DNA of 64,000 bases from an uncultured Candidatus Peribacteria bacterium. GTDB taxonomy: Bacteria > Patescibacteriota > Gracilibacteria > Peribacterales > Peribacteraceae. The translations under genes were made by a program, and so were the position numbers. Where the stretch lies: contig CAZZDD010000001.1 of the NCBI GenBank assembly GCA_964652185.1, positions 20,407 through 84,406 of the forward strand, written 5' to 3'. Under the pieces are notes generated by a model. It had not been told where the DNA came from and ran no database searches. It saw nothing but the letters and a program-made list of their open reading frames with translations. Shown here piece by piece: positions 18,443 through 55,434 of the stretch; position 1 is the first letter of the stretch, and each line of letters opens with the position of its first letter.

Positions 18443-20430
18443 TCGACACTCATTCCTAGATCCCACATGCTATCGGTGCCGGGTGGCTCTAATGACCATT
18501 CACCCGAATCGATATGGTATTCGGCGCGTTCGATGAAAAACTTTGACAACGGTGCCAGATGATCTACACCTTGCGGTATGCCGTGTATACGCAGCCATTT
18601 AGCCGTAGGCAGGACACCCGCTTCAACAGGCACACCGTTTGGTTGTGTCAGCGTGCCGTCAGACATCATCACTAAATCACTGCCAATATCCGATGTCGGC
18701 TGCTCGTAGATTGACAAAATATTGTTGCCGTCAATCTTCGCTAAGAGCCTAGCCGCATAATCGGTGCCGCTGTCTAGCAGCTTTTCAATCTCGAATAGCG
18801 CCGTGCCATCGCCTTCTCGGTATTGATTCGATTCAACGCCCGACGCTTGTTGTAAATCGTAGCCATCAATAAACTGTGCTGAATTGGATAGGATTTCACC
18901 GATCTGCGTTGTTGTTTCAGATGCTCCACGAATGATAAATGGCATATCAGCATCGGGATCGCGTGCCACCCACGCAGCGCCGGTCCAAAGCTTCAGATCG
19001 CCACCGGCATAGCCAAGGTCTTCCGCCACATCTACAACGTAATAATTGACCATGCCATTCGCACCAGATCGGCTAACAACGATCCAGTAATCGGTGCCAT
19101 AGGTAATACTGTTGGCATTAGTAAAGATAAATTTCTTCCATGCCATCGTAGATGCAATGTCCTCGGCTGCCATCGATACGGATTCGATCAATGTGTCAGG
19201 TGAGCCGCCGGAATCGGTGTACAGTGCTACCACCACATTATCGAGCGGCGTGCCAACCTTCTTCACACGAATGGCGATATCGTTGACCGTCCACGTTGTA
19301 TCGGCTGCGAGCGTGAATTTCTGCGCCACTTTCACGCCATGCACTGTTAGTGTGACGGTAGCTGACGGTAGTTCATTCGTGAAGGTCGTGTTTGTCTCAA
19401 TAAACCCCGCTTGCGTGATGGTGATTGATGGTCCAGCCGCTTCAGTGACAATTGTCGTACCACCAACGGTGATATGTTCAGAATTGATAGCATTGGTGAC
19501 GATGCGCACTTCGTCATTAGATGATGAACCCGATATGTCAATGATGTCGTAATCATTTAGAAACGATAGCCCTGTGCCAAGCACATCTAGGATATCGTCG
19601 GATGGATCGAATGCAATCGTGGTAGCGGTGTAGACTTCGCCGTCTACACCGTTGCGAATCGTGCGCACGGTCTGATCATTGCTGCTGCTTCCAGAGATAA
19701 TCACGGATACATCAGCAGGCAATGCGTCAAGGTAGTTGTCGAAATCCGTAATCTTCGTGTTGCTGAATCCGAATTCAGCAGATGTGCGACCAACACCGAG
19801 TATCTGATCTGCGCCGCCCGACGTGTTGTATTCAAGCAGGCCGGCATTCTCTGAATAAAGTTGCCGCTCTAGCAATCCCCATTGCCCCGTACATGTCATT
19901 GACGCTGTTGGTGCATTCGCCCCACGTAGCGCACGGATAATTGGTGTTGGATTCTTCAGCGTGGCAAGCATGGTGTCTCGGTACGCTTCAGCCTGTGCCG
20001 TTGATACATCCGCCTTTGTCATCAATTTTTCACTGTAGCCATATCGAGCGATGCTTTCAGCGTCTTCCGCCCAATCGGTGGTGAGGCGTTCCAGTGTGCC
20101 GTCAATTGTCGCTTCGGTGTAGGCGATTTTGACGCGATTGACAATGTTCTTGATTGACAGTCCTACCTGCATAGCACCATAAGTGACTAACACTTCTTCG
20201 ACTCTGCCGACCCAAACCAACGTGTAATTAGCGTTGCGGATGTGTATCGTATTCCCGATCATTCGCAGTACAGACATGATCGAATCCTGCGGACCATCAA
20301 CCCGTATCTCGGCTTTCTCGTACCCACCCACCGCCATGCTGCTATACCAGGATGGCGTAAATTCAAGCCGTTCAAGTGTAGATACAGGATCGCCGGCTGC
20401 CGTAAATACCTGCACAGAGAAGTTACTCAT
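18439..20430 (-). CDS. tail tip / baseplate-hub-like protein (663 aa)
   Basis: Second gene after the tape measure in a siphovirus-type order. ATGA coupling on both sides. No specific motif recognised. Confidence 0.6.
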   Translation of the reverse strand: MSNFSVQVFTAAGDPVSTLERLEFTPSWYSSMAVGGYEKAEIRVDGPQDSIMSVLRMIGNTIHIRNANYTLVWVGRVEEVLVTYGAMQVGLSIKNIVNRVKIAYTEATIDGTLERLTTDWAEDAESIARYGYSEKLMTKADVSTAQAEAYRDTMLATLKNPTPIIRALRGANAPTASMTCTGQWGLLERQLYSENAGLLEYNTSGGADQILGVGRTSAEFGFSNTKITDFDNYLDALPADVSVIISGSSSNDQTVRTIRNGVDGEVYTATTIAFDPSDDILDVLGTGLSFLNDYDIIDISGSSSNDEVRIVTNAINSEHITVGGTTIVTEAAGPSITITQAGFIETNTTFTNELPSATVTLTVHGVKVAQKFTLAADTTWTVNDIAIRVKKVGTPLDNVVVALYTDSGGSPDTLIESVSMAAEDIASTMAWKKFIFTNANSITYGTDYWIVVSRSGANGMVNYYVVDVAEDLGYAGGDLKLWTGAAWVARDPDADMPFIIRGASETTTQIGEILSNSAQFIDGYDLQQASGVESNQYREGDGTALFEIEKLLDSGTDYAARLLAKIDGNNILSIYEQPTSDIGSDLVMMSDGTLTQPNGVPVEAGVLPTAKWLRIHGIPQGVDHLAPLSKFFIERAEYHIDSGEWSLEPPGTDSMWDLGMSVE

Positions 20431-29567: not shown

Positions 29568-32498
29568 CTAGAGAGTAATGTTGTACGAAACCGCACTGGC
29601 TTCCGTATCCCGGTAGACCATACCGACACGCATGGTGCCAACAATCACAGTGCTATCACTGATAGCATCGCGTTGCACTTCAAACATCCAGCGCCGCTTG
29701 TAGCCAAGACGCCATTGATCGAAACGCACACCAAGAATAGAGCCCGTGGTGTTATTGCTGGCGGTATCAAGATCGACCTTGCCGGCAGTGTTCGCCTTCA
29801 GACCATATGTGGCATCTTGATTTGCACGGTGCATGTTTGCCGAGGCGAACACGCGTGCGCCGTAGATGCTGGTCAGCATACCCTCTTCAATGGTCGGTCG
29901 AATGAACACGTCACGAGTTTTAATCTCGGCAAGTTCAAGCGACTTCCAGTGAGTGTGCATATCGGTAATGAATGCAACTTTGGATTTATCAGCAGCATTG
30001 CGCCCACCCAAGCCCATGAGCTTAAGAGTTTCCAGATAATCCTCAAGCGTCAACGTGCCGGCGCTACGAGCATTGGCTGTATTCGTCACCAACGCCAACT
30101 TGCGAAACCCATCAAACAGCATGAACGCTTCAGTGCCGGCAGGTGTGCCGCCGATGTCGTTGATGTTCGTGGTGGCACCCGCTGCGGTGTCGCCGTCAAG
30201 GATGACGTGCTCCATCACTTCGGCAGCTTCCGCCACAATGTCACGGCGCAACTCGGACACCCACGGGATGAACGAATCTTCCTCAAGTTCGCCACTGTAG
30301 TTGATGGCTGCACCAAGCTTAGACACCGACAGGGTTTGCTTGGCAGTGTTCAGGCGGCTTGTGGTTTGCGTCGGGGTGACGCGGCCAGGATTGCTATCCT
30401 GCGCACTCGCCTGAGCAACCTTGTAGAAGGTTGGGCTTGTGCCAATGACGGGGATGATAATCGATTCGCTGCCTTGGGGAATTTCCACGGTTGGAATCTG
30501 CGCAGCAATAGGAGCGGCCAAACGAACCTTATCCCACAGCTGGGTGCTGTAGGTAACGCCAACCCACTCGTCACCATAGCTGGCAAGCGTGGACTGGTTT
30601 AACTCGTTCGCCTTCATCGACATGCCTGCGCCCTTCATTGCAGCCTTAGATGCAATGTATTCGCGCTCTTCGTCGCCTGTGGTTTCGGCAATGCGCACAG
30701 CCATCGCTTTGATCAGATCTTCGCTTGGCCCGGTGCTCATGCGACCACCGACACTAACGCCCTTTGCGCTGTTCAATACACCGGCGGCAAAAGCAAGGTC
30801 GTCAATACCAAGCGTGTCATACTTCCACAGGTTGCCGAACTTGGCTTGGTACGGCGCTTCTCCACCACCCGGCAAGCGTCGCGCTTCGGCAGCTTCGGCT
30901 TTTGCGGCTTCGATTGCAGCCTTGGCGGCGGTACGCTCTTCCTCGAATTGCTTTTCGAGTTCGACACGCACGGCTTCAGCGGAACTCTTGGCAGCGTTTT
31001 TTACTTCATTCTGTCGATCCTGTTCAGCCTTGACAGCGGCATCGCGTTGCGCGAAAACTTCCGCCACAGACTGAGCAACAAGATCCTTGACGTTCACTTC
31101 GTCCATTGTCTTATTCTCCATTACTTCAGATCGTTGTTGGTTGTCCGTCTCGCTTGCTTTTGCCGATGCCCGCCCTCGCAATGGTGTACTGCCATCACCT
31201 ATAGCTGCATCCTCTGGCGCTTGCTCAGAGTCCGGTTCTATGTCATCAGGCAGAGTAAGCCCCGCCTGTGTCCATACTGCTTTCATCACCGGCAATGCCA
31301 CGGCGTATTGATTCGCCGGTTGCCGGTTGCCTACTGCATCAAAGATACTCAGTTCCGCGACGGGCCAATGCGTGATGTGCCCGTCTTTGCCCTTGCGAAC
31401 TAGGTGCGTAATTGAGCCACTTGACGCACGTGCCACACCCTGCTTGGCAGCTTCCCACACGCGCTTGGCGTAGGCGCTTGCCTTATCCAGTACCACACGA
31501 TACCAATGTCCTTTGTTATCAACGTGGCTATAACTTGCTGTGCCAATGTATGCCGGCTCACTGGACGGACGGTTATTTTCGTCGTAGCCGTGGAAGTAAA
31601 TTGCCGGCACAGCCTTGAATTGTTCGGTGTACGTTTTCGTCTGCTCGCTGAAATACTCACCGTCAGAATCACGTCCGGCATTGTGCCCACCGAATGGGAC
31701 GCCCAGCACATCAAGTGCCCACACATCGCCATCTGATTTGATAGCACGCACAAGCCCGTAAATCACCGGCTGCGCTTCGGCTGTGGATTTCTCTGCGCTC
31801 TTGACGTTGATCTCGATCTCAACCTTGCCGTTATCCTCTTCGCAATCTTCTTCCTCACCCATGCCCATCAGCGGGAAGTCAAGCCGTTCACCGGCCCAAA
31901 TCAAGCTGACTTTTTCAACTCGCATCGGCGTTGCCGGAATCATCAGATCGGGCATCGGCATTGCCGCCGGTAGGTAAGCCACAGTGATATGTGGCGTAAA
32001 CCCGTGGTCGGATTCTTCGATATATTCGTCAACTTCTTCGCATAACTCCGCACGAAGGTCCGCCAACTGTGGGCTGTCGTAGTTCAGGAACAGCGGGTAT
32101 TGCCCTTCGCTTTCACTGAATCGTCCGTAGCCGTTGATCGTGCCTTGCAGTGGGCTGTAGCACTTGGCGCACTCGGTAATGGCGGCAACGATGTCGTTCT
32201 TGCTACCTGCAATAGTCGCCACGTCATCAGCCAAGTAAAGCAACGTCACGTGGTCACATTCGCCGGTTGCCATTTCGCCGACAAGACCACGCACGGTGCC
32301 AATCTGTTCGGGCGTCAGCATGAGCGCAATCATTGCGCCTTGGTTCGCCATCGGATCGATCTGCACTGCCTTAGTTTGAATCGTGGTCGTCATTGCTTCC
32401 GGCTCCATATCATTCACCGTGGCCACAATGCTCGTTGCAGCACTACGGATGTCGTTCAGTCGTTGCCGGTCATTTCGATTATTGCGTGCACCTGGCAT
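29568..32498 (-). CDS. polyprotein: 2H phosphoesterase - prohead protease - scaffold (delta-like coiled coil) - HK97-fold major capsid protein (976 aa)
   Basis: Single uninterrupted ORF. HxT motifs at H83 and H170. Protease-like GVPFGGHNAGRDSDGEYFS...AIYFHGYD...SSGSITH. AEK-rich coiled coil. C-terminal HK97-type MCP (LNQSTLASYGDEWVG...KQTLSVSKLGAAINYSGELEEDS...ILDGDT...FEVQRD). Confidence 0.85.
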   Translation of the reverse strand: MPGARNNRNDRQRLNDIRSAATSIVATVNDMEPEAMTTTIQTKAVQIDPMANQGAMIALMLTPEQIGTVRGLVGEMATGECDHVTLLYLADDVATIAGSKNDIVAAITECAKCYSPLQGTINGYGRFSESEGQYPLFLNYDSPQLADLRAELCEEVDEYIEESDHGFTPHITVAYLPAAMPMPDLMIPATPMRVEKVSLIWAGERLDFPLMGMGEEEDCEEDNGKVEIEINVKSAEKSTAEAQPVIYGLVRAIKSDGDVWALDVLGVPFGGHNAGRDSDGEYFSEQTKTYTEQFKAVPAIYFHGYDENNRPSSEPAYIGTASYSHVDNKGHWYRVVLDKASAYAKRVWEAAKQGVARASSGSITHLVRKGKDGHITHWPVAELSIFDAVGNRQPANQYAVALPVMKAVWTQAGLTLPDDIEPDSEQAPEDAAIGDGSTPLRGRASAKASETDNQQRSEVMENKTMDEVNVKDLVAQSVAEVFAQRDAAVKAEQDRQNEVKNAAKSSAEAVRVELEKQFEEERTAAKAAIEAAKAEAAEARRLPGGGEAPYQAKFGNLWKYDTLGIDDLAFAAGVLNSAKGVSVGGRMSTGPSEDLIKAMAVRIAETTGDEEREYIASKAAMKGAGMSMKANELNQSTLASYGDEWVGVTYSTQLWDKVRLAAPIAAQIPTVEIPQGSESIIIPVIGTSPTFYKVAQASAQDSNPGRVTPTQTTSRLNTAKQTLSVSKLGAAINYSGELEEDSFIPWVSELRRDIVAEAAEVMEHVILDGDTAAGATTNINDIGGTPAGTEAFMLFDGFRKLALVTNTANARSAGTLTLEDYLETLKLMGLGGRNAADKSKVAFITDMHTHWKSLELAEIKTRDVFIRPTIEEGMLTSIYGARVFASANMHRANQDATYGLKANTAGKVDLDTASNNTTGSILGVRFDQWRLGYKRRWMFEVQRDAISDSTVIVGTMRVGMVYRDTEASAVSYNITL
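31860..32340 (-). other. 2H phosphoesterase (LigT/CPDase-like) domain within the capsid polyprotein
   Basis: GAMIALML...ECDHVTLLYL (motif 1) and FTPHITVAYL (motif 2), 87 aa apart, each H-x-T followed by hydrophobics. C-terminal VSLIWAGERLDFPL strand. Confidence 0.7.
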
Positions 32499-43404: not shown

Positions 43405-45411
43405 TTATATCGCCAAAAATCGATTAATACGCACGGTGCCGCTAACGACTCGCACAACAACGGTATGCTCATCGTAATCCATATTCCATACACTCAGGTA
43501 CGCGGTCCCTTGTTCGCTTAGGTCAACTTGTTGCTCTTCGCTGCCATCCACGGTCCAGGCATAAACGCCCGCGCCCACGCTGTTGTTGCTGTCAAACCCA
43601 AACGAGCAGAACGTACCCGTCCAACTGATTGTGCTGTTGACCGTGGACGATGTGCGTGCGGTAGTGCTCACCGTTGACCATGTGCCCGTCTCACCATCGT
43701 TGTCAACACCCGTACGGATTTGGCTTTCTCTCTCATAATCTGCCGATTCAGCGTAATAGCGGGACGGTAAGACGCTTGGTTTGTTCGGTGCAATTGTCGC
43801 AAGCCGTGGGTACATAGCACCTGCAATTAGAGCGTGCCCCGCATCGGATGGGTGAACGTTGCCAGGAGATGCTATATATGGCTCTATATCACTGTCATCG
43901 TAAGGCTCCCCCACCACTGCAACAATCGCGTCATCGAATCGAGCGGGCGTCAGACCGTAGAGCGAACAAAGAGCAAGCCATTTATCACGTACATCCTTCA
44001 TTGTTTGCGTGACATAGCTGTAATCCTCTGGTCTGGTAAAAATACCAACGACCAACATGGCGGAGGGGAGTTCTGTCCACAATCTCCGTATCAATGCTTC
44101 GGCAGTTGGCGCAAAGCCGTCGCTGCGATCTCCAATTTCGTCGTAGCCATCGTTGACCGCAAAGTCAACGAACACAACAGCGGGCGAATAGTCCAACACA
44201 TCGGTTTGAAGGCGCACCAGTCCGTACCATGATGGCGTGCCACCTTCTGCCGATTCAATCGATGTAATGGTGTAGTTCAGCTTGTTTTCGTTGAGCCACT
44301 TACGTGTTAGAGCCCGCCAGCTTGTTCCCTCATTTTCCGTACTGCTTGCGCCGCCGGTGATACTGCCGCCCAACCAAACCACATCAATGTCTGGACCAGG
44401 CTTGGTCATGAAAAACCCCTGCGCTTCACAACCGCCACCGGTACACCATAGTCCGTGATAGCCATTGTCAACGATCTCTGCGTCACTGATCGTTTGGTCG
44501 CTACCAACCTGAACATCGCCATACCAAAGCTGGAAAGTGGTTGACGCTGTACGCCTTACCTCAACGTGCGCCCCGGCGAAGTATGTGGCACTGCTGCTAA
44601 TGAGTTCTGTTATTGTGCCACTGACAACTTTGGACATTTTCACAGTCTCGGTAATGCGGTCGAAGCGTGCCCGCACGTAAGATGTGGGATCGCTGGTGCT
44701 ATTGGCACAGACTACAACACCAGCGTGCTGTCCATCAGGTATATTCCAGCCTGCCCGTACAATAACCGGTCCCGTCACAACTTGGTCACGGAAGGTCATC
44801 AGCGACGCGGGAACCATAATCTTTGCTGATACGTTGTCAAAGTAGAGACTAGCGTTTGGCGCAATGCCACGCGATAAAAAAAGCTGCTGGTTAGTGACAG
44901 ATGGCGCAAGTGTCACTAGTGCGTCCGTCCAACTTGTACCGGGGGTAATCGTCCCACCCACCGTTGTTGACGCACCGCTCTGAATACGTATGATCGCTGT
45001 GTCGTCTGACGCACGTACACGCACCGCAACACGCTCGAAATCACCAACGGCTACAGCCACCGTTTGCCGTATGCTGCAACCACTGCTTGAACCGTCAATG
45101 TCAAAACGGGCACTGTAAGTGCCGGAATCAACAATCGTACTCTCTTGGTTGACCGTGGACGATCCGGCGATAGTTTCTGTCCAACTCGTCAGATTGGTTG
45201 CGCTAGACCAATTCTCAAACGCACCATCAGTAAGCAACTCACTGCCAACCGATGGCGTGTTAGTCGCTGCGCCGTTGACGATTTGCCATGTACTAGCATT
45301 GAGCCAGCCATTACCGAGGCTACCATCATCGCGATCAAAAAGATCGATAAATCGCGGTGTGCCACTTACTCCCAACCTGCTACCCAGCAATCCACTACCC
45401 AATAATGTCAT
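43405..45411 (-). CDS. carbohydrate-binding + SGNH/GDSL-type esterase protein (668 aa), probable virion-associated depolymerase/deacetylase
   Basis: CBM4/9-like opening (LLTDGAFENWSS...LTSWTE). SGNH blocks: VVWLGGSITGG (I), SAEGGTPS (II), VFVDFAVNDG (III), VHPSDAGHALIA (V). Confidence 0.7.
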   Translation of the reverse strand: MTLLGSGLLGSRLGVSGTPRFIDLFDRDDGSLGNGWLNASTWQIVNGAATNTPSVGSELLTDGAFENWSSATNLTSWTETIAGSSTVNQESTIVDSGTYSARFDIDGSSSGCSIRQTVAVAVGDFERVAVRVRASDDTAIIRIQSGASTTVGGTITPGTSWTDALVTLAPSVTNQQLFLSRGIAPNASLYFDNVSAKIMVPASLMTFRDQVVTGPVIVRAGWNIPDGQHAGVVVCANSTSDPTSYVRARFDRITETVKMSKVVSGTITELISSSATYFAGAHVEVRRTASTTFQLWYGDVQVGSDQTISDAEIVDNGYHGLWCTGGGCEAQGFFMTKPGPDIDVVWLGGSITGGASSTENEGTSWRALTRKWLNENKLNYTITSIESAEGGTPSWYGLVRLQTDVLDYSPAVVFVDFAVNDGYDEIGDRSDGFAPTAEALIRRLWTELPSAMLVVGIFTRPEDYSYVTQTMKDVRDKWLALCSLYGLTPARFDDAIVAVVGEPYDDSDIEPYIASPGNVHPSDAGHALIAGAMYPRLATIAPNKPSVLPSRYYAESADYERESQIRTGVDNDGETGTWSTVSTTARTSSTVNSTISWTGTFCSFGFDSNNSVGAGVYAWTVDGSEEQQVDLSEQGTAYLSVWNMDYDEHTVVVRVVSGTVRINRFLAI

Positions 45412-45713: not shown

Positions 45714-45937
45714 GAGTAGTACACTCTCAATTCTCGCAGTGCCGCAAACACTCGTGACTCACGCAACACAGCGAAGATTCTGATCAATGGTGTGATGACA
45801 TCGGACACAGCGAATGGAATGTACGCACGTAGCAAGATCGCCCGATCTGTGCCATCCACCGTGCCATCTGCGCTTGGCAACATCCACACGGAAACGCCTA
45901 GCGCAGCGCGTCGCTTGGTTGCGGTATCAATCGCCAT
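45710..45937 (-). CDS. hypothetical protein (75 aa)
   Basis: ATG 45937 in TAATG overlap with upstream stop. Confidence 0.45.
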   Translation of the reverse strand: MAIDTATKRRAALGVSVWMLPSADGTVDGTDRAILLRAYIPFAVSDVITPLIRIFAVLRESRVFAALRELRVYYS

Positions 45938-47538
45938 TACGACCACTCGCCTTTGGTAAAGGTGTCACCGTCGTCAGTCACGGTTGCCGTGTTCTGTGCC
46001 GTCACGCCGTCGTCGGCGTACAGCGTTTGCGTGGTGGATGATTGCGTCAGCTTGTTACGTGCGAGCTTCATCAGCCATCCAATTTTTGCCGCCAATGAAG
46101 CGGTCGCGCTTGGCGTGCTTGTCGGTTCGGCGTAGGTGTCTACATTGAGCGTGTCCACTACCTGAGCGTTGACATCCGCTTTTGCCTGTGTGCCTAGGGC
46201 ATTGACCGTGCCGACCGTGACGCCACTTTGATCAGCCGCTAGACTGTAGCCCGCCTTGCTGCCACTTGCCACTACCACACCATCGGTGCCGGTATCAGCA
46301 AGCACATCGGCAATTGCCTTGCCAAGCGTGCCTGCTGTCGCATGTCCGCTCATCGCTTCGTCCAGAACAGCATCAGCAATCGCTGCCGCTGTCGGATCGT
46401 TGAGATTCGTGTTAGCCGTCAATGTACGTGTGCCATTTGCCCACACGTCAGCGGCGCTATGTGTGCTGAAACCACTTGCCGTCACCCACGCTGCATCACC
46501 ACGATCCCTCAACGCCTCCACGCTGTCCGTCGTGTTGGCGTAAGCACCTGTGCCCGATCCGCCATTAGCATTGATGGCCGTCAACTCAGTAGCGTTGTCG
46601 GTAGCAATAGCTGAATCCTTGCGGAACAACAATTGGAAGTATTTTAGAACCTTGCTGCTGAGTGTGGATATCGATGATGCCGTGGCAAGCGCTGCATCAC
46701 TGATTGCCGCGTCAACCGTGGCGTTAATTTCCGCTACAGCATCGGCAGCCAGCGCATCAGCGTCAATGGCATCGGTAGCAATGGTTGCAGCCGTAATCGC
46801 GCCGGTGGCAATAGTCACACCGTTTGTGACACTCGCCACACTGCCAACGACATTGCCGCCAACGTTGCCCGTCACCGACGCTGCTATTGGCGTCGCTGCT
46901 GTCGCTGCCGTGGTGACAGAGGCTTTCATGGTTGCAGTAAGATCACCGTTCGTCGGCGCATTGGTTAGATTTGTGACGGTGGTGATTGTGCCCGCCGTGA
47001 TATTGGTTGGCGTAGCTAATCCGCTCTGAATTTCGGCTATGGCATCCGATGCCACCTTGGCGGCAGTGATGGCGTCGCTGGCGATCTTTGCCGCAGTGAT
47101 AGCACCATCGACAAGACCCGCAGCAGTCACAGATGGGATCACGTTATTGGTGCCAGCGTAACCCGTGCCATCGAAGAAAGCTTCAGCGTTATCGGCTGCG
47201 GTTGCATCGCCGCTGATCTGCCCAACATCCACACGGACATCACCAAGCTCTTCGGGATAGATGGTAATCACGGCAGTTTTTGCATCCGACTTGACGATTA
47301 CCGCAATCGTGTCGCCGTTCATTTCGCCGCTGCTCAGGTCTAAGTAGTAGACGCCGCTGGCCGTGGCAATCTCGGTCGCTTCGTTCGTGCAGTCTGAGAA
47401 AGTGCCGCCATCAATCGATACTTCGCTGTCAAGCCCCGCCGCGCCGGTCTTCAGATTGCCGTCCGCGTCGAAGATGGGGAACGTTACTCGAAACGCTGTG
47501 TTTTTTCTTGGAATCGGACGGGAATCACTCGCTGCCAT
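45937..47538 (-). CDS. fibre/spike-like protein (533 aa)
   Basis: N-terminal beta-rich module, then VDVGQISGDATAADNAEAFFDGTGY and long Ala/Thr-rich repeats (DAITAAKIASDAITAAKVASDAIA). Confidence 0.6.
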   Translation of the reverse strand: MAASDSRPIPRKNTAFRVTFPIFDADGNLKTGAAGLDSEVSIDGGTFSDCTNEATEIATASGVYYLDLSSGEMNGDTIAVIVKSDAKTAVITIYPEELGDVRVDVGQISGDATAADNAEAFFDGTGYAGTNNVIPSVTAAGLVDGAITAAKIASDAITAAKVASDAIAEIQSGLATPTNITAGTITTVTNLTNAPTNGDLTATMKASVTTAATAATPIAASVTGNVGGNVVGSVASVTNGVTIATGAITAATIATDAIDADALAADAVAEINATVDAAISDAALATASSISTLSSKVLKYFQLLFRKDSAIATDNATELTAINANGGSGTGAYANTTDSVEALRDRGDAAWVTASGFSTHSAADVWANGTRTLTANTNLNDPTAAAIADAVLDEAMSGHATAGTLGKAIADVLADTGTDGVVVASGSKAGYSLAADQSGVTVGTVNALGTQAKADVNAQVVDTLNVDTYAEPTSTPSATASLAAKIGWLMKLARNKLTQSSTTQTLYADDGVTAQNTATVTDDGDTFTKGEWS

Positions 47539-47883: not shown

Positions 47884-48582
47884 CTAGAGTAGGTTCATCG
47901 CTGTTGTGAGTGCCGCTACGTCCGCGCCGCTTAGTGTGGTTGAGTAGATGGCGAGAGCTTGGACTTTGCAATTAGTGTATTGGGCTGGTGCGCCAAACAA
48001 ATTCAGCGCACCAATAAATATCGATAGCGCTGAGGCGGAACCGCCGGCCGCAATGGCATTGCTCTCTGCTGTGCCATTGCGATATGGATTTTTACCAGCA
48101 ATCGCATATATGCCACCGAATAATTGCGGCGTGTTTGTACATGCCACTCCAGCGCCGTTGAATGTGATAACGTTGCTGGTGTTGAGCTGGATCAAAAATG
48201 TTTTACCGGTATCGTATGTGCCAACAATTGTAGATGACGCGCCGACAGTTGCATTGGAGTATCGAGCGATCAGTGACCAATTGGGGATGTTGGCATTGTT
48301 TATCCCAGTAGTCAGATACTGGCTCGTGCCGTTGAACGTCCACCCGTCCACGCTGCCGTGTGTCGGCGCAACCCCCGGCGCGGCGTTGTATGTGCCAGGA
48401 TTGGCAAGATTGATATAACTGCTTGCAAGGTCAGCAGACCCCTTCGGCTGATAAGCTGCCACGCACGTCTGCCCCGCCACGTCCCACCAGTTTGACGCTG
48501 CTGCGCTACCCCGTCCGCTGCCGATCTGCACTCCCATCCCAGGCAGCACGACAGGTCGCCCCGGTCGAATAATCATCATCAA
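47884..48582 (-). CDS. LamG/concanavalin-A-like lectin domain protein (232 aa)
   Basis: GWTFNGTSQYLTT...WSLIARYSN...TFLIQL...YAIAGKNPYRNG...IGALN...KVQALAIYSTTLSGADV is laminin-G_3-like. TTG 48582 or ATG 48579 start. Confidence 0.6.
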   Translation of the reverse strand: MMMIIRPGRPVVLPGMGVQIGSGRGSAAASNWWDVAGQTCVAAYQPKGSADLASSYINLANPGTYNAAPGVAPTHGSVDGWTFNGTSQYLTTGINNANIPNWSLIARYSNATVGASSTIVGTYDTGKTFLIQLNTSNVITFNGAGVACTNTPQLFGGIYAIAGKNPYRNGTAESNAIAAGGSASALSIFIGALNLFGAPAQYTNCKVQALAIYSTTLSGADVAALTTAMNLL

Positions 48583-48701
48583 TTAAACCCAGCCCCATTC
48601 ATGAACTCATCGATCAGTGCGTACAGCGCTTTTCTTGCCATGATAGCCACCACAACCAATGTCACTACCACGCCAACGCCAATCCACAATAATGCCGTCA
48701 T
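48579..48701 (-). CDS. mini membrane protein (40 aa)
   Basis: Below track cutoff. ATGA overlap with the upstream mini-ORF. One TM helix (LLWIGVGVVVTLVVVAIM). Confidence 0.4.
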   Translation of the reverse strand: MTALLWIGVGVVVTLVVVAIMARKALYALIDEFMNGAGFN

Positions 48702-48781
48702 TCATTCTCGCCTTTCACCCACAGCCACGCCACGAACAGGATCGCAGCGATGATGGCGGCCACGAGCCTGATGGCTAGCAT
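48698..48781 (-). CDS. mini membrane protein (27 aa)
   Basis: Below track cutoff. ATG 1 nt after the upstream TAA. One TM helix (LAIRLVAAIIAAILFVAWLWV). Confidence 0.35.
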   Translation of the reverse strand: MLAIRLVAAIIAAILFVAWLWVKGENE

Positions 48782-48782
48782 G

Positions 48783-49034
48783 TTAGCCTAGCAATAGTTT
48801 GCTGATCTTGCTGCGTTGCGTAGGCGCATCACCCATACCGCGAGATTGGGCGGATGGCTCATCGGTGCTTGCAGCGACAACGATGAACTTTAGCAATGTT
48901 GGAATTGTCGCCAACAGAATCGGTGCCCACACGTATTCACCGCCGGGGTTACCTGTGGCAAAATATGTAGTTGCCCAAGTCGCGATGGCTAATACCAAGC
49001 TGTACACGATCCCTGGAACTTTGATTTCACTCAT
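48783..49034 (-). CDS. holin-like membrane protein (83 aa)
   Basis: Two or three hydrophobic helices and a charged C-terminal tail. Function is inferred. Confidence 0.45.
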   Translation of the reverse strand: MSEIKVPGIVYSLVLAIATWATTYFATGNPGGEYVWAPILLATIPTLLKFIVVAASTDEPSAQSRGMGDAPTQRSKISKLLLG

Positions 49035-49055: not shown

Positions 49056-49823
49056 CTATCTCAATACTAACTTTTCCGCTTGCTTGTAGTCTAGTGCCAA
49101 CTTTGCCTCGTCCACCGCCTGCTGTACCGGCAGCCCCGCGGCGAACAACTTATAAAACTCTTGTGCAAATTCGATAGCTGCATCGTCTTCGATTTCGCCG
49201 CTCACCGCCACCACGTGCTGAACGCCTGCACGCTTCATTGCATCTGCTACACTCTCGTCACTGAAACACGCTAGTATGACAGCTACGCGGATGCCTCGAT
49301 TCTTTAATGCTCTTTGCCACCACCCCGCCGTCAGCTCATGCTGATCGATAAATATGGCATCAGCATCACCATGTGCACCGATCTCTATTACAGTGATATT
49401 GCCCTGACGCAACTCTCGCAAAATATTAGCTTTCGTAGCTGCATCACCGATTAGCGTTCTATACTCGAATCCGGCATCATAGATGGCGTCTCGCTCTGCC
49501 ATCGTGTCAAGATTATCGCCACTCCAAATGCCAAGTATCGTTACCTCCGACACATGATTCACCTGTTTGCGCAGCGTGTTGATCTCTTGCTCTAATCTCG
49601 CTCTATCCTGTCGCAGTTCCTCTATTTCCCGCTTTGCTTGATTCACTTCAATCAGCAACGTATTCCGCTCATCTCGCAGCCATGCAACTTGCTTTTTCAA
49701 TTCCTGGATTTCCATTGCTGTACTGGCTGTGTTTGGAATCCAACCACGCCGTATACTAATTACAAAAACGACAAATAGCAGCAATGAAAACATCAACGAC
49801 AATACAAAAAACCACCCACTCAT
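49056..49823 (-). CDS. membrane-anchored coiled-coil protein with C-terminal CHAT (caspase-like) domain (255 aa)
   Basis: N-terminal TM (FFVLSLMFSLLLFVVFVISI RR). Heptad coiled coil (aa ~37-90). CHAT-like core VIEIGAHGDAD (H151) ... IRVAVILACFSDE (C186) ... AGVQHVVAVSGEIEDDAAIEFAQEFYKLFAAG. Confidence 0.65.
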   Translation of the reverse strand: MSGWFFVLSLMFSLLLFVVFVISIRRGWIPNTASTAMEIQELKKQVAWLRDERNTLLIEVNQAKREIEELRQDRARLEQEINTLRKQVNHVSEVTILGIWSGDNLDTMAERDAIYDAGFEYRTLIGDAATKANILRELRQGNITVIEIGAHGDADAIFIDQHELTAGWWQRALKNRGIRVAVILACFSDESVADAMKRAGVQHVVAVSGEIEDDAAIEFAQEFYKLFAAGLPVQQAVDEAKLALDYKQAEKLVLR

Positions 49824-50125
49824 CTTCGGTTCCAGACCTGTCTAATCACATAGACGATAGCTATAATCGCTAGAATGGTTAGCAGCGGTGTGGTTACGTA
49901 GAGTAAAATCCATTCCTGTCGAAAAATAACACTTTGAAAAAACGATAACATGATTAATGCAACGCAGAGATGCAGCATAGACACAAGTACCGAAGATCTT
50001 GTCCAATTGTGCGCTGCTCGAAAAATCGACACTAGCATAATAACGAGATAATCCAGAAGTCGGATAAGCCTAGCAAGATCTTCAATATCCATCAGCATCC
50101 CTGCAATGTGTGCGTCAAATCTCAA
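49820..50125 (-). CDS. three-helix membrane protein (about 90-101 aa)
   Basis: Three hydrophobic segments. ATGA-coupled to the CHAT gene. Start uncertain: TTG 50125 or ATG 50098/50092. Confidence 0.5.
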   Translation of the reverse strand: MRFDAHIAGMLMDIEDLARLIRLLDYLVIMLVSIFRAAHNWTRSSVLVSMLHLCVALIMLSFFQSVIFRQEWILLYVTTPLLTILAIIAIVYVIRQVWNRR

Positions 50126-50136
50126 AAAATCTTTGC

Positions 50137-51294
50137 CTACTTTGCTCTATAATCAGCGTTGTATTGTTCTAGCTTTTCCACGGCCAACTCTAGGCTGTCA
50201 TATCCGGTCATGCCATGCTCAGGATGAAAAATCACAGTAACGGCAGTGCTTTTGTTTGCCTCTGCAAAGCCAATCTTAGTGGCGAATTGATCGTAAACCT
50301 TGTACGCTCCACAAATCACGGCTAGCCCCGTTTCACCGCCTGCGTTGAACTGTCTCGATAGTCCGCTTACGTGCGTATGGGCTCCAACGCCCAACCGAAA
50401 CGGCTTCGCCTGATCTCGCTCAAATGCTCGCTCAATACCATGTGTCGGATTCAGCACACTGTGGTATTGCCATTTGTGTCGAATGCGTGCCGGCACAACA
50501 AGTGATCCAACTTCGATATTTACTAGCAGCTCATCAGTGTGGTAGAGCACATCCGGTCGAACGCTAGACAACGCATTGCGCAACTGATCGACTCCGCTCA
50601 TTGCCGCTGTCCATTGATCGTGATTTCCACTGACAACCGCCAGCAACTTCGGTCCAATGATCTCTAGGTACATCTTGGCAAGCGCCCATTCCTCTGGGAT
50701 CGTTGTGCTCGTGAACAGCCGTAGCGATAATAATTTGCTAACGATAAAATTATCAACCAAGTCACCGACGTTGATAGCGTAAAGATTGTCGGTGTCAGCA
50801 ATCAGTGAAGCCTCAGCAAACATTCGTTCGTAATCCACGCCTTCGCCCCCGATGTGATTGTCCGCTGCGAATGCAATGCCAATCGGACGATTCGGAAAGC
50901 GTATGAACTGATTGCGCCGTCGGTCCATTGAGTTACGCAATGCGTTAAACCGTGCAATGGATCGCTCTAGTACCGCCCTTGCGTCTGGCAATTGTTCGCC
51001 GGCTGTCACGCCTTGAATCTCAACTATGCCATCGTTCGGAATTGAACCAAGTCGGGCTCTTACCGCCTCCCTAACTTCAGGATTGCGAACCATCAATCCA
51101 CGCCATGCACCCGGTGTATAGTCGAGTCCTAATGCTTGATTCGTGCCCATGCCAGCAGCCGCAACGGAAGTGTATAGCGGTGCCAGTTCAACAATCTTTC
51201 GTAATGCTTCATCTCGCAGTGCCGTGTTAGTGTTGGCGTCAATGTTGTCGGTTGGCTCTGCGGCGTCGGTCGGGATTTGCGCCGCTTCTGTCAA
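50137..51294 (-). CDS. metallophosphoesterase (calcineurin-like)
   Basis: Motifs in order: AADNHIGG, NVGDLVDN, VVSGNHDQW, GVGAHTHV. TTG 51294 lies 8 nt after GGAGG. About 140-aa N-terminal extension without motif. Confidence 0.8.
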   Translation of the reverse strand: MTEAAQIPTDAAEPTDNIDANTNTALRDEALRKIVELAPLYTSVAAAGMGTNQALGLDYTPGAWRGLMVRNPEVREAVRARLGSIPNDGIVEIQGVTAGEQLPDARAVLERSIARFNALRNSMDRRRNQFIRFPNRPIGIAFAADNHIGGEGVDYERMFAEASLIADTDNLYAINVGDLVDNFIVSKLLSLRLFTSTTIPEEWALAKMYLEIIGPKLLAVVSGNHDQWTAAMSGVDQLRNALSSVRPDVLYHTDELLVNIEVGSLVVPARIRHKWQYHSVLNPTHGIERAFERDQAKPFRLGVGAHTHVSGLSRQFNAGGETGLAVICGAYKVYDQFATKIGFAEANKSTAVTVIFHPEHGMTGYDSLELAVEKLEQYNADYRAK

Positions 51295-51363
51295 AAAATT
51301 TACCTCCAAAATGGTGGGGCGACAACGGAGTTGCACCGCTCACCGGCTGACCGGTTCTCAAAG

Positions 51364-52466: not shown

Positions 52467-52657
52467 AATTCAGCATCAACCCATTTCCAGCCAAGCAACA
52501 ATCGGTGCATCCAGCGGTGAAACCAGTTCGGACGCACCGTTGCGCCAATCCATACGTATGGCAAAATCTGCCAACCTCCAACGGTCGTGTGGCTATTAAC
52601 AAAACTTACGCCCCGTGTAGATTCCGTGCCCACCGTGTATTGATCGTATGAACTCAT
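52463..52657 (-). CDS. hypothetical protein (64 aa)
   Basis: ATGA coupling on both sides. Confidence 0.4.
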   Translation of the reverse strand: MSSYDQYTVGTESTRGVSFVNSHTTVGGWQILPYVWIGATVRPNWFHRWMHRLLLGWKWVDAEL

Positions 52658-53226
52658 AGCTCACCTTCAAACGCCATCGCCCACCGCTCAAGCTTTTGCA
52701 CTCGATTGCGAAGATCCGCAACCTCTTGCGTTAGTTCGTTGGTTGGCGGAAGGACTGGATCGGGATCCGTCGGTGGCGGTGTGACTGGCGACATATGCCG
52801 CTTGAACCTAATGTAGAAAGAATGGTGACCGAAACTGTTCCAGTTCTCACGATTTGGTCCATGCTCATCAGCGTGCCGCGTGTGAATGCCTGTAACGACA
52901 TCGCTATCCAACCCAGATCCAACCATGTAGATCGACACAGTATCATTGGCATATAAATCTACAACGCCGTCGCCCTTTTCCATCGGGCCATCGTTTTTAT
53001 CCAACTTCCGCAATTCTTCGGCACTCTGCGGGCTGCGCCGAAATGCCATGCGCAAATCATCGTCGCGTACACGGTTGCCATGATCGTCAACTGCATCAAC
53101 GTAAATAGCATGACCACCACGATTTTCGCTTGGCGACAAGTGACGTATTTCTTCCACATGCCAGGCAAAAGGCGTCTTAACCGTAGCTAGTCTTACGTCG
53201 TACGCTTCAGCTTGATTCACTGTCAT
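52654..53226 (-). CDS. hypothetical protein (190 aa) with Pro-rich linker and C-terminal coiled coil
   Basis: ATG 53226 in ATGA overlap with upstream stop. Confidence 0.55.
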   Translation of the reverse strand: MTVNQAEAYDVRLATVKTPFAWHVEEIRHLSPSENRGGHAIYVDAVDDHGNRVRDDDLRMAFRRSPQSAEELRKLDKNDGPMEKGDGVVDLYANDTVSIYMVGSGLDSDVVTGIHTRHADEHGPNRENWNSFGHHSFYIRFKRHMSPVTPPPTDPDPVLPPTNELTQEVADLRNRVQKLERWAMAFEGEL

Positions 53227-53549
53227 CCGCTCACCCACCCCAACCATTTCCATAACGCATCATTCGTAATATCGTCAGTCCCGCAATCGTCCGACTCGTC
53301 AATCTCATAGTAGATATACGCCGCATATTCATCGCTGCTTGGCACCACCAACCGGATCGCCCGCTGCCCGTGCCGCCATTCAATCCGCACCTCGCCACCG
53401 CCGCTCGTGTGCGCTTTACCGATCATCTTCGTTTCGCCAGCTTCGTTGATCAGCCGCTTGGCTGTGGCTACGGCGTAAGCGGATGGCGGTACGTCGGCTG
53501 ACTGTAATTCGTCAATGGCAGCGAAGGTCCATTGTGTGCCGGTCTTCAA
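53223..53549 (-). CDS. hypothetical protein (108 aa)
   Basis: TTG start in TTGA overlap. Confidence 0.5.
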   Translation of the reverse strand: MKTGTQWTFAAIDELQSADVPPSAYAVATAKRLINEAGETKMIGKAHTSGGGEVRIEWRHGQRAIRLVVPSSDEYAAYIYYEIDESDDCGTDDITNDALWKWLGWVSG

Positions 53550-53965
53550 CGGTACTCCTCAATCAGTTGCCGCATTGACGCATAGTGCGCACCTTCGAGC
53601 TTGTGTGTCATCATGATTTTTTCTTCCGCCATTGCACAGACACGATTGTAAAAGTCAACCACATCTGCATTATTAGGCACACGTTTGTTCCATATAGCCG
53701 CCGCTAGTCGCATGGCTTCAATCGGATCTTCATGGTGCACACTATCGGTCATTAATTCACATGTAGTGCATTCAATCCATGTCGCATTAGGATCTAGTGT
53801 GTCTAGCCATTGACCAAACAGGGCTATACCACCGCAGCAGGGACACGGCAACAAGTCAGGTTCCCTTGGCGGCGGATCCTGTTTAGCCCATCCCCACTTT
53901 CGAGAGAGATCATCTTTGACCGCTCCCATCAAGGCATCCATCATTTCCCATCCATCATTCGGCAT
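53546..53965 (-). CDS. Lar-family (restriction alleviation-like) zinc-ribbon protein
   Basis: LLPCPCCGG...WIECTTCEL...EAMRLAAAIWNKR matches the C-P-x-C-G ... C-x-x-C ... A-x-x-x-W-N-x-R layout. ATG 53965 in TAATG overlap. Confidence 0.55.
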   Translation of the reverse strand: MPNDGWEMMDALMGAVKDDLSRKWGWAKQDPPPREPDLLPCPCCGGIALFGQWLDTLDPNATWIECTTCELMTDSVHHEDPIEAMRLAAAIWNKRVPNNADVVDFYNRVCAMAEEKIMMTHKLEGAHYASMRQLIEEYR

Positions 53966-54168
53966 TACAGTTCCACCCAATCACACGCTGCCTTAGTCAC
54001 GCCATCAACCACAATCAGATCATCATTGCTCAGTAGTTCGGGATCGTCTTCCTCGTCCCATCCCCACGTTGGATTAAAATCTTGATTGGCATATCGAAAC
54101 CGCACGTAGACAACACTGCCATGTTCTTCGCCACCAAATCTAACCGTGTAGAATCCGTCGCTTGGCAT
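53965..54168 (-). CDS. hypothetical protein (67 aa)
   Basis: ATG 54168 overlaps the endolysin stop (TGATG). Confidence 0.45.
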   Translation of the reverse strand: MPSDGFYTVRFGGEEHGSVVYVRFRYANQDFNPTWGWDEEDDPELLSNDDLIVVDGVTKAACDWVEL

Positions 54169-54992
54169 CACGCCCCCACCAATTGCCGAATCAACTGAGC
54201 ATAATGACTAGCATTTGCGCTGCCATTGTAGGTCTTCGCAAAGCCTAGATAATCGCCAATCTTCAATGCTGCCAATGCCCCACTGCTATCCATCCACCGG
54301 AACATAGCTTCAATCTGCACGTCTTCGCCCTCACTGAACGCCAACGCCATTGCCGGCGCTGACACGTAGCCAAGCATTTTATGATGGAATCCCATTAGTT
54401 GAGGCGCACCCATACTGCAACTCTGCCAAGCAGATTCGGCATCGATCATTGTGGCTAGACTAAGCGCTTGCCACTCACCATTTTGCTTGCCGTGATAGCC
54501 TACCCAATCGGCTCGCGGTGAAGTACGCAGTCTGTGTTGGTTGCCGTCCCACACTGGTGAGCCAACAGCGAACAATCTGTCGAAGCCGTCGCTTGTGGCA
54601 CGAACTCGAAACACGTGTGGCTCAAAGCGAATCACAAGCCGTCCATCCTCAAAGCCACGCCCGCCCGATTCAACCTGAATCACAGCCTTGACTTTCGCCA
54701 CATCTACGCCGTAAGCCGCCGACAGTCGATCAATCAATGGCGGTGTCTCACCAAGGACAATCAGTAATGGACGCCCGCTTACGGCCTCAGCGCACCAGCC
54801 AACTTTGTCGCCACTCTGCACACCCCACCATCGCAAGCCGTCCGCGTCAACAGGACCATCAACCACACGCAGCGGATCGCCGGTGTAGGACAGTTCGCCA
54901 ATCTTGCCGTAGCTGCGACCTGGACCACTGCGAATATTTACGATTAATGGCGTGCTGACATTTACGCCGATGGTGATTGGTTCTAGTCCCAT
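54168..54992 (-). CDS. endolysin: SH3b domain + N-acetylmuramidase (DUF3380/PF11860-type)
   Basis: VNIRSGPGRSYGKIGEL...GLRWWGVQSGDKVGWCAE (SH3b). AVIQVESGGRGF...IRFEPHVF...SCSMGAPQLMGFHHKMLGY...FAKTYNG (muramidase). ATG 54992. Confidence 0.85.
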   Translation of the reverse strand: MGLEPITIGVNVSTPLIVNIRSGPGRSYGKIGELSYTGDPLRVVDGPVDADGLRWWGVQSGDKVGWCAEAVSGRPLLIVLGETPPLIDRLSAAYGVDVAKVKAVIQVESGGRGFEDGRLVIRFEPHVFRVRATSDGFDRLFAVGSPVWDGNQHRLRTSPRADWVGYHGKQNGEWQALSLATMIDAESAWQSCSMGAPQLMGFHHKMLGYVSAPAMALAFSEGEDVQIEAMFRWMDSSGALAALKIGDYLGFAKTYNGSANASHYAQLIRQLVGA

Positions 54993-55183
54993 ATGATCGC
55001 CCCGCCACGTTGCAACGAAAGAAAGCGATCCCAGTCCCAAGAATAAACCGCATCTTGTGGATTTAGTCCCGGCACAAGCGGACATATCTGCCCGATCATC
55101 CACTCAGATAGCGCAGCCTGAAGAGACTCGTCTGTCTCGCTGATTCGGATATAGTTGATGCCATCGTGATTGTGAATTTGCAT
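54983..55183 (-). CDS. hypothetical protein (66 aa), first ORF after the structured leader
   Basis: ORF with a weak SD. No TM segment, so not an obvious holin. Confidence 0.4.
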   Translation of the reverse strand: MQIHNHDGINYIRISETDESLQAALSEWMIGQICPLVPGLNPQDAVYSWDWDRFLSLQRGGAIIWD

Positions 55184-55341: not shown

Positions 55342-55391
55342 AAAAAAAACGGGCGCAGAAACTAACACGAATGTGCTAATCTCTGCGCCCG
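55342..55391 (-). terminator. strong rho-independent terminator (hairpin + U8)
   Basis: Minus strand: CGGGCGCAGA..UAGCAC AUUC GUGUUA..UCUGCGCCCG followed by TTTTTTTT (55349..55342). Confidence 0.8.
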
Positions 55392-55434
55392 TTGACAGTA
55401 CAGTTACGCTGTTGCTATTTTACTGAACGATGAA

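Follow-up and report, generated by a model that had tools for sequence, protein, structure and literature searches.

A phage gene for a membrane-anchored CHAT-domain protein

The stretch of DNA analysed here (the window: 64,000 nucleotides of contig CAZZDD010000001.1) belongs to a tailed-phage genome that carries TerL, portal, tape-measure and endolysin genes, and its TerL is at most 44% identical to those of cultured phages. No tRNAs were found in the window. Our subject is a minus-strand gene at 49056-49823 whose product, called here the CHAT protein, joins an N-terminal transmembrane (TM) helix to a coiled-coil stalk and a caspase-like CHAT domain. The gene and its parts are as follows.

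49056-49823, minus strand: TM-coiled-coil-CHAT gene, supported by the open reading frame (ORF) call, a Pfam CHAT match, the AlphaFold model, Foldseek and homologs
49752-49814, minus strand: N-terminal TM anchor, residues 4-24, with a Kyte-Doolittle score of 2.92, no Lys/Arg before the helix and two after it
49557-49730, minus strand: coiled-coil stalk, residues 32-89, about nine heptads, from the model helix, the heptad register and matches to coiled-coil families
49059-49541, minus strand: minimal CHAT/caspase-fold domain, residues 95-255, from strand order, an invariant dyad and alignment to SAVED-CHAT

The ORF runs from an ATG start to a TAG stop and encodes 255 residues. An earlier, sequence-only reading of this DNA had described a TM helix followed by two arginines and then a heptad coiled coil, and both are borne out. 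The helix (WFFVLSLMFSLLLFVVFVISI) is directly followed by R25-R26 (49746-49751), and residues 32-89 form a single unbroken helix in the AlphaFold2 model. Over 63 residues one heptad register places L, I, V or M at 72% of the a and d positions, compared with 39% or less for the other registers, and the stalk matched coiled-coil families in Pfam, PADLOC and PDB searches.

The CHAT fold and its catalytic dyad

The same reading had assigned the C-terminal 160 or so residues to a CHAT core with a His151/Cys186 dyad and had named fold prediction as the way to check it. Pfam PF12770 matched residues 113-246 (E=3.1e-10; 40.4 bits, with a gathering cutoff of 24 bits). The alignment covers positions 122-268 of the 289-position profile and leaves positions 1-121 unmatched, short of a full-length domain. 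In cellular CHAT relatives the homologous region begins about 70-440 residues into much longer proteins. The partial profile match and this late start together lead us to regard the phage CHAT domain as a truncated, minimal core.

An AlphaFold2 model built from an alignment of 26 relatives has a mean predicted local distance difference test (pLDDT) score of 90.9 and consists of the TM helix, the long helix and a compact alpha/beta domain spanning residues 95-255. The predicted strand order is b1-a-b2-a-b3-His...b4-Cys-a-b5-a-a-b6, with beta3 (145-149) running to His151 (codon 49371-49373) and beta4 (180-183) running to Cys186 (codon 49266-49268). A His after strand 3 and a Cys after strand 4 are common to all caspase-fold enzymes, so the fold prediction came out as the sequence-only reading had anticipated. 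In a Foldseek comparison with the PDB, the best match to the model was SAVED-CHAT (8tl0; E=1.4e-9, 23% identity), followed by DdvA, Csx29/TPR-CHAT, gingipain R, caspase-7, caspase-3, separase and legumain, all with a probability of 1.00; the top 30 matches are CHAT, separase, gingipain, caspase and legumain structures, and the top matches are all proteases of clan CD.

Conservation singles out the same residues. H151-G152 and C186 are invariant in the 26 relatives, as are E147, G149, S188, D189 and D213, and in 20 of the 26 the catalytic cysteine is the only cysteine in the protein. A search of the PDB with the single sequence returned noise only. With the family profile, SAVED-CHAT 8tl0 was the only significant match outside the coiled-coil proteins (E=2.7e-6); counting residues along this alignment, the family GaHG motif falls on chain residue His355 and the LaC motif on Cys402. 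The spacing of 47 residues is identical to that between the catalytic H375 and C422 of SAVED-CHAT, and chain H355/C402 therefore correspond to these residues with a constant offset of 20. The SAVED-CHAT H375A/C422A double mutant is inactive.

On sequence, predicted fold and placement of the dyad, the CHAT protein is thus assigned to the CHAT/clan-CD family, and we consider it highly probable that it is an active CHAT-fold protease within a phage-associated family. HetF, a cyanobacterial protein of cell division and heterocyst differentiation, is a founding member of the CHAT family, and the NCBIfam HetF model did match the phage protein weakly (E=0.003, far below cutoff), over about 50 residues of the post-Cys helices out of 836 model positions. 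An alignment of this length does not support orthology with HetF.

A family of small phage membrane proteins

A word-indexed search returned 44 relatives of 230-290 amino acids, all of them unnamed or hypothetical and all (44/44) carrying PF12770. At E<=1e-30, 75 clusters emerged when 1.84 billion cluster representatives were searched exhaustively with a hidden Markov model (HMM). The best 150 matches are mostly 240-320 amino acids long and span almost all of the profile, and it is only from about E=1e-18 that long multidomain CHAT proteins begin to occur. Every one of 27 diverse representatives has the N-terminal TM helix, and 25 of them retain both the His and the Cys.

Two distant members, P0111 and P0134, carry Arg where the catalytic His would be and Asp where the Cys would be, yet keep the TM helix, the coiled coil and the CHAT fold, and are probably pseudoproteases within the family. 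Pseudo-orthocaspases are known (PMC6426788). These proteins raise the idea that the CHAT fold serves only as a noncatalytic binding module, with proteolysis irrelevant, for example as an antiholin-like binder of a partner's cytoplasmic domain. We consider this most unlikely for the protein in the window: His, Gly and Cys are invariant in 26 of 26 close relatives, the dyad is kept in nearly all of the diverse members, and the motifs around it match those of active SAVED-CHAT. Conservation of this kind would not be expected without catalysis.

All full-length members found come from phage contigs or from contigs whose shortness prevents classification, ten of them IMG/VR viral contigs. Wherever a contig is of sufficient length for a judgement, it is phage DNA and carries terminase, portal or capsid genes. 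One relative lies on a contig from a metagenome-assembled genome labelled Promineifilum. A search of one genome per species across 185,579 species yielded no full-length relative and no prophage copy. The 64 matches in these genomes are CHAT domains 24-48% identical to that of the phage protein, set in proteins of 295-1583 amino acids that lack the TM helix and the coiled coil; at least 29 of the 64 come from Chloroflexota. This share and the Promineifilum-labelled contig are the only pointers to the host of the phage.

Among GenBank phages (50,697 records), neither megablast with the 5-kb region nor tblastn with the full protein found anything, and a permissive tblastn search with the CHAT core gave a single marginal match (E=8e-4) to an unannotated faecal contig. 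With no annotated GenBank phage relative, there is no function to borrow. A literature search likewise found no characterised phage CHAT protease, the only mention being a passing annotation of gp72 of mycobacteriophage Aelin. The sequence-only reading was aware of no characterised phage protein with this architecture, and the sequence and literature searches agree. The CHAT protein therefore belongs to a substantial, uncharacterised family of 240-320-residue bitopic phage membrane proteins.

Two further viral proteins of similar size, A0A1P8DJ94 (264 amino acids) and A0A8S5MXG5 (320 amino acids, Myoviridae sp.), both in BFVD, have a matching fold by Foldseek (E=1.8e-9 and 4.7e-8, respectively; identity 12-17%). 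On the evidence of these models, the TM-coiled-coil-CHAT family described here may account for only part of the small CHAT-like proteins of phages.

Genes adjoining the CHAT gene

The CHAT gene lies in a run of minus-strand genes, and the following neighbours bear on its role.

55349-55392, minus strand: terminator-like hairpin from a terminator scan, with a 20-bp stem and a run of eight or more T, just upstream of the endolysin gene
54168-55103, minus strand: endolysin with SH3_3 and N-acetylmuramidase domains (PF11860, E=1.6e-35; PHROG endolysin families, E=9e-42)
52654-53253, minus strand: C2, a conserved soluble protein of 199 amino acids without a family, which travels with the module and is often beside the endolysin gene
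50137-51336, minus strand: C1, a calcineurin-like metallophosphoesterase of 399 amino acids, 11 nucleotides upstream of C3 (phrog_7339, E=2.3e-36; weak Pfam Metallophos match)
49820-50125, minus strand: C3, 101 amino acids, three predicted TM helices and the basic C-terminus RQVWNRR; its stop codon overlaps the CHAT start (ATGA)
48783-49034, minus strand: C4, an 83-residue membrane protein, 21 nucleotides 3' of the CHAT gene, with homologs in other loci
48698-48781, minus strand: candidate ORF for a 27-residue single-TM peptide (MLAIRLVAAIIAAILFVAWLWVKGENE), coding status uncertain
48579-48701, minus strand: 40-residue single-TM peptide with the conserved C-terminus ...NGAGFN and homologous 41-residue peptides in other loci

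The ATGA coupling to an upstream three-TM protein claimed by the sequence-only reading can be read directly in the overlap (...CGA AGA TGA / ATG AGT GGG), and the 83-residue membrane protein and two mini TM peptides that it placed downstream are all present as ORFs. C3 is small, has at least one TM helix and a charged C-terminus, and shares an operon with an endolysin gene, the sequence features of a holin; it matched no named holin family in Pfam or PHROGs. We predict that C3 is a holin-like partner of the CHAT protein. For C4, a hydropathy threshold gives one TM helix whereas two can be read from the sequence, and its conserved basic tail ends ...AQSRGMGDAPTQRSKISKLLLG.

The metallophosphoesterase C1 has intact DxH, GD, GNHD and GHxH motifs and no match among PDB sequences. 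It also has an extra N-terminal region of about 130 amino acids. C2 matched nothing in Pfam, PHROG, PADLOC or NCBIfam; its model is a beta-sandwich (pLDDT 72) for which Foldseek found no match below E=0.05. An invariant patch in C2 rich in His, Asp and Glu (H124, R126, H127, D129, E130, H143 and H144) suggests a metal site. The endolysin, read from its GTG start, has a 37-residue N-terminal extension with a weakly hydrophobic stretch rich in Gly, Ser and Leu (GLFLGLGSLSFVATW), which in sequence resembles a SAR (signal-anchor-release) signal-anchor; the related endolysin of locus L087 also begins with a hydrophobic segment.

The endolysin gene is the first in this orientation after the hairpin and lies 4.3 kb upstream of the CHAT gene. 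No minus-strand terminator was predicted between 55349 and 47400, and the junctions from the metallophosphoesterase gene through a 232-residue gene are 0-21 nucleotides long or overlapping. The hairpin is the probable start of the transcription unit that holds the CHAT cluster, and probably marks the boundary between early or middle and late transcription. The predicted unit opens at the endolysin gene and runs toward tail-fibre and terminase genes, an arrangement that resembles the lambda late operon, which opens with lysis genes. Sigma-70-like promoter sites were fewer than in shuffled controls. The lytic-module neighbourhood asserted by the sequence-only reading thus stands in part: an endolysin gene does lie upstream with no predicted terminator in between, but the linkage is looser than stated, with 4.3 kb and Lar-like, DUF1937 and metallophosphoesterase genes interposed.

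A conserved pair with a shuffled set of companions

To place this arrangement in context, we compared about 20 loci from independent assemblies by calling ORFs, predicting TM helices and clustering the proteins. A small multi-TM gene with a basic C-terminus sits directly 5' of the CHAT gene and usually overlaps its start. The C3 family holds this position in the window and in L004, L082, L079-81 and L087 (HMM E 1e-15 to 1e-44), and a multi-TM protein of 118-144 amino acids takes its place in L005/L086, L083, L089, L090 and L091. At least ten lineages have the overlapping upstream multi-TM gene. As the pairing still holds where CHAT identity has fallen to 26-33%, two translationally coupled genes make up the conserved core, the first encoding a small multi-TM holin-like protein and the second the CHAT protein.

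The pair is as a rule followed by one to three more small membrane proteins, and the loci without an upstream partner have one to three small TM proteins 3' of the CHAT gene. Altogether, 13 of 15 lineages have a small TM ORF within 80 nucleotides of the CHAT gene, as against 28% expected (binomial P ~4e-6, which overstates the significance because the lineages are not independent). L006/L007, L083 and L089 have C4 homologs 3' of the CHAT gene, and L072 has one nearby; the TM regions of these proteins diverge, but they share the conserved tail motif RSKIxxxLxG. Homologs of the 40-residue peptide, 41 amino acids long, lie 3' of the CHAT gene in L001-3 and L074 (HMM E 1e-24 to 1e-27), with a weak match in L076, and the family ends in NGxG[FW].

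Larger companions recur as well. In eight of the first 15 loci, and in L083 and L087 as well, the metallophosphoesterase C1 adjoins the CHAT gene or is one small gene away from it, on either side, and a nonorthologous Metallophos gene occupies its place in L005 and L086. C2, at 190-200 amino acids, is found in seven of the first 15 loci and also in L086 and L087. In seven lineages (the window, L001, L004, L005/L086, L006, L076 and L087), the CHAT gene is preceded at a distance of 0.3-4.3 kb by an endolysin-type gene that reads in the same direction, and these genes belong to four nonhomologous types: muramidase (the window, L087), Hydrolase_2 (L001, L005/L086), GH108 (L006, L076) and Peptidase_M23 (L004). 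The genes from the endolysin through CHAT are closely packed in L086, mostly with overlapping stop and start codons. In L087, C2, the endolysin, a 51-residue TM gene, C3, CHAT, an 85-residue gene and the metallophosphoesterase follow one another within 5 kb. Across other phages, endolysin, C2, metallophosphoesterase, multi-TM partner, CHAT and small TM proteins remain close together while their order is shuffled. The recurrence of endolysin and holin-like genes in a late operon provides circumstantial support for a lysis-linked role of the CHAT protein, and is also compatible with a role in anti-defence or exclusion.

The exclusion alternative draws on L079-81, in which the C3-CHAT pair lies amid head and tail genes (capsid, head-tail adaptor and a gene for an 1821-residue protein) and the other partners are absent. 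This is the classic position of a moron, and the pair could be imagined as a self-contained superinfection-exclusion or abortive-infection cassette akin to RexAB, the multi-TM protein acting as channel or effector and the CHAT protein as sensor or activator, with the cell killed or depolarised upon a trigger. RexB is a small multi-TM protein and RexA has about 280 amino acids, so the two phage proteins resemble them in size and architecture, and the location of the pair relative to its neighbours does vary. Several observations make such a cassette improbable. No integrase or repressor was found in the window, and a dNMP kinase gene and a genome of 95 kb suggest a virulent phage; the unit is tightly packed in an operon, with neither promoter nor terminator evident for it alone, and matched nothing in PADLOC; and the recurrent linkage to endolysin genes would not be expected. 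The structural-gene setting of L079-81 is also late.

Predicted topology

The charge pattern around the anchor of the CHAT protein, with Lys and Arg absent before the TM helix and present after it, is the same in 23 of 23 TM-bearing members of set A1. The tail before the helix is very short, and in 27 diverse members this N-terminal flank has zero or one Lys/Arg and is usually acidic, and the C-terminal flank carries a charge of +1 to +3. Because positive charge is absent before the helix and Arg and Lys cluster after it, the positive-inside rule predicts an N-out/C-in orientation. The stalk of about 58 residues and the protease would then face the cytoplasm of the host, a placement that we regard as probable. 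A cytoplasmic location would also fit a thiol protease with a single cysteine. The orientation is the one needed for the processing of a holin tail and weighs against action on surface components.

The layout of an N-terminal TM helix and a long coiled coil is otherwise that of the lambda i-spanin Rz, and we therefore considered whether the protein could be a spanin-like envelope factor, whose N-in/C-out stalk, of the i-spanin type, would carry an enzymatic head directed at lysis against proteins of the periplasm, the cell wall or the outer layers. The gene in L004 and L082 follows the endolysin and holin-like genes and directly precedes the terminase genes, as Rz does in lambda, and periplasmic CHAT domains do exist (DdvA). 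In every member examined, however, the charge distribution is opposite to that of an N-in anchor. No lipobox-containing o-spanin is adjacent or embedded: C4 and the 27- and 40-residue peptides have no Cys, and the embedded minus-strand ORFs have no signal peptides. A single catalytic thiol would, in addition, be better suited to the reducing cytoplasm. A spanin-like function is thus very unlikely, and the identification of the CHAT protein as an i-spanin was rejected on its predicted topology and the o-spanin not found.

Locus L004, a phage contig of 66 kb, has other features of note. It contains IS605-type TnpB genes (OrfB_IS605 / Cas12f1-like_TNB) at 3969-4388 and 19047-20210, a cluster of glycosyltransferase and methyltransferase genes after the terminase genes, and an actin-like ALP_N segregation protein.

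Comparison with characterised CHAT and lysis systems

The closest characterised relative is SAVED-CHAT, a type III-B CRISPR-associated protein of Haliangium ochraceum. Its GHG and AC dyad motifs align residue for residue with those of the phage protein, the two share the post-Cys alpha-helical region (FAxxFY), and SAVED-CHAT is activated by oligomerisation, the model that we propose below for the phage protein. SAVED-CHAT, in contrast, is a soluble bacterial protein of about 500 amino acids encoded beside CRISPR genes, with a SAVED domain that senses cA3, whereas the phage protein has no sensor domain and is anchored to the membrane through its coiled coil. TPR-CHAT/Csx29 of the type III-E Craspase and separase have the caspase-hemoglobinase fold and the His-Cys dyad in common with the phage protein (Foldseek E 1e-6 to 1e-4) and are placed in the same Pfam family. 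They are cytosolic proteins of about 650-2000 amino acids built on TPR or ARM scaffolds and are regulated by an RNA-guided complex or by securin. Residues 1-94 of the CHAT protein matched no TPR or SAVED domain and comprise the TM helix and coiled coil only, and no Cas genes were reported near the CHAT gene in the window or in the related loci. Membership among the CRISPR-associated proteases was rejected on the missing TPR or SAVED domain and the phage gene neighbours.

DdvA, a transmembrane anti-sigma factor of Myxococcus (8rot/8rw5), is the second-best structural match and, like the phage protein, a single-pass membrane protein with a CHAT domain. DdvA is dimeric, and autoproteolysis in trans has been proposed for it. 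It has about 1000 amino acids, with a cytoplasmic zinc anti-sigma domain at its N-terminus and a periplasmic CHAT domain C-terminal to TPRs; the phage protein differs in having the opposite predicted topology and no anti-sigma domain.

A shared logic, in which a protease leads to membrane permeabilisation or death, connects the mechanism proposed below for the phage module with the caspase-like or CHAT proteases that activate gasdermins and with the type IV Thoeris effector. Johnson et al. in 2022 reportedly found that bacterial gasdermins are activated by caspase-like or CHAT proteases. The effector of type IV Thoeris is described as caspase-like in a preprint (10.1101/2024.10.24.620036). These are host defence systems whose substrates are soluble gasdermins or many cellular proteins, whereas the module described here is phage encoded and its partners are small proteins integral to the membrane. 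The neighbours in the window and the Pfam matches of related loci included no gasdermin domain, and with no gasdermin gene in its context, membership in a gasdermin system was rejected.

Among lysis proteins, lambda Rz and the antiholins T4 RI/RIII and P1 LydB have a similar setting in a late operon by endolysin and holin-like genes. Rz shares the TM and coiled-coil layout of the CHAT protein but has the opposite topology to the one predicted here, and the regulatory role of antiholins on a holin would parallel the one that we propose. None of these proteins is an enzyme, unlike the CHAT protein, and in the literature we found no phage-encoded protease known in lysis control. The phage CHAT protein thus lacks the defining features of every characterised CHAT system compared and of the spanins. 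Its catalytic fold is known, but its virus-side, membrane-tethered architecture and its gene context are new, and no protein that shares them has been characterised.

Defence-oriented searches gave little. In PADLOC-DB v2 the CHAT protein had only coiled-coil noise (LmuB, PbeC; E>=1e-4, residues 32-93) and eight of its neighbours matched nothing; in NCBIfam, the same nine proteins gave coiled-coil noise apart from the weak HetF match. CHAT and caspase-like proteases are nevertheless central to bacterial immunity (type III-E CRISPR, SAVED-CHAT, caspase-like Thoeris), which makes a phage counter-protease plausible. In such a scenario, the CHAT protein would cut host proteins at the inner face of the membrane, for example membrane-associated defence effectors or sensors or proteins of division or cell-wall synthesis, and the TM partners would recruit or regulate it. 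A Lar-like restriction-alleviation gene is among the genes between the endolysin and CHAT genes in the window (53546-53980, minus strand; PF14354, E=3.5e-8), and L083 has one too; the metallophosphoesterase found on either side of the CHAT gene could degrade a nucleotide signal; and capture of the domain from a host would agree with the largely Chloroflexota origin of its nearest cellular counterparts. Anti-defence genes are usually early, however, and the CHAT gene lies in a late-type operon or among structural genes. No PADLOC defence model or known anti-defence family was matched, and the strict translational coupling to a small multi-TM protein, kept down to 26% identity, would be left unexplained. 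On balance, we consider an anti-defence or host-takeover protease unlikely, although it is the alternative to which we give most weight.

A proposed model for protease-controlled lysis

We slightly favor the view that the CHAT protein is functionally linked to the adjoining membrane proteins and the lysis module. More tentatively, and as the best supported of the readings considered, we propose from its genetic context that it is a proximity-activated protease that acts on adjacent holin-like proteins or on membrane-proximal targets and thereby controls lysis. We envision a scenario in which the CHAT protein builds up in the membrane late in infection and its coiled coil drives dimerisation or oligomerisation, which would switch on the protease by induced proximity, as in initiator caspases and the SAVED-CHAT filament. 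The protease would then clip co-expressed partners of the holin or antiholin type in their cytoplasmic tails or loops, or else a different membrane-proximal target, and this clipping would license or time membrane permeabilisation and endolysin action. Shortening or changing the basic C-terminal tail of the lambda holin alters its timing, and tail clipping is therefore plausible as a switch. That the specific substrate is a holin or antiholin is possible but on the doubtful side. We also speculate, with low expectation, that the module is a caspase-and-pore lysis switch in which a protease activated by clustering cuts the regulatory tail of its coupled holin or antiholin and so fires permeabilisation. 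If so, lysis timing would be set by proteolysis and not by holin concentration alone, and the switch would be the viral counterpart of pyroptosis by caspase and gasdermin, as well as the first case of a holin gated by an enzyme.

A number of points weigh against protease-controlled lysis. The substrate and phenotype of the CHAT protein are wholly inferred, as there is no characterised homolog. The placement of the dyad was read from secondary structure and pLDDT, a basis that does not extend to side-chain geometry, and the orientation in the membrane comes from the positive-inside rule alone. The two distant members without His and Cys indicate that some lineages, at least, work without catalysis. 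As for the genetic setting, the promoter and terminator scans report consensus matches, which are no proof of function. The Lar-like, DUF1937 and metallophosphoesterase genes between the endolysin and CHAT genes are of an accessory type, and the region may therefore be a general accessory island and not a lysis cassette; the metallophosphoesterase and C2 have no obvious place in a lysis model. The moron-like position of the L079-81 pair, with no endolysin nearby, is typical of exclusion or defence cargo. Finally, the true holin of L086 could be the product of a separate 59-residue TM gene that directly follows the endolysin gene.

In recent work, caspase-family (CHAT) proteases have come to be seen as key executioners in the defence of bacteria against viruses, with Craspase, SAVED-CHAT, gasdermin activation and caspase-like Thoeris as examples, and to our knowledge the characterised ones are all host encoded. 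The proteins described here form a diverse virus-side family that combines a stripped-down catalytic core with a coiled-coil membrane tether and is genetically tied to small holin-like proteins, and a conserved phage caspase-like protease in this position should surprise specialists in phage lysis or prokaryotic immunity. Control of lysis by the CHAT protein, if true, would add an enzymatic layer to the holin-endolysin paradigm, now thought to be protease-free, and would run parallel, in evolutionary terms, to cell death by caspase and gasdermin. Should the CHAT protein instead destroy host defence or envelope proteins, the family would form a class of counter-defence new to phages. Either way, the 160-residue core is among the smallest intact CHAT domains and offers a model of the minimal fold and possibly an engineerable, membrane-localised protease.

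Other genes of the window

The remainder of the minus-strand region contains several proteins of interest. Two genes lie between the CHAT cluster and the terminase genes: one, at 43405-45411, encodes 668 residues that include a GDSL/SGNH esterase domain (PF13472, E=7e-12), and the other, at 45937-47538, a 533-residue Ala/Thr-rich fibre-like protein. A tail fibre or a depolymerase is the probable product of each. An ORF of 2663 residues (10475-18466, minus strand) lies downstream of the tape-measure gene; neither it nor the adjoining ORFs of 663 and 450 residues matched PHROG, and the three may encode novel tail or host-recognition proteins. Finally, a 976-residue protein encoded in the structural region (29568-32498, minus strand) contains an RNA-ligase-like segment at residues 82-211 (phrog_14859, E=8.5e-15), an unusual placement for such a domain.

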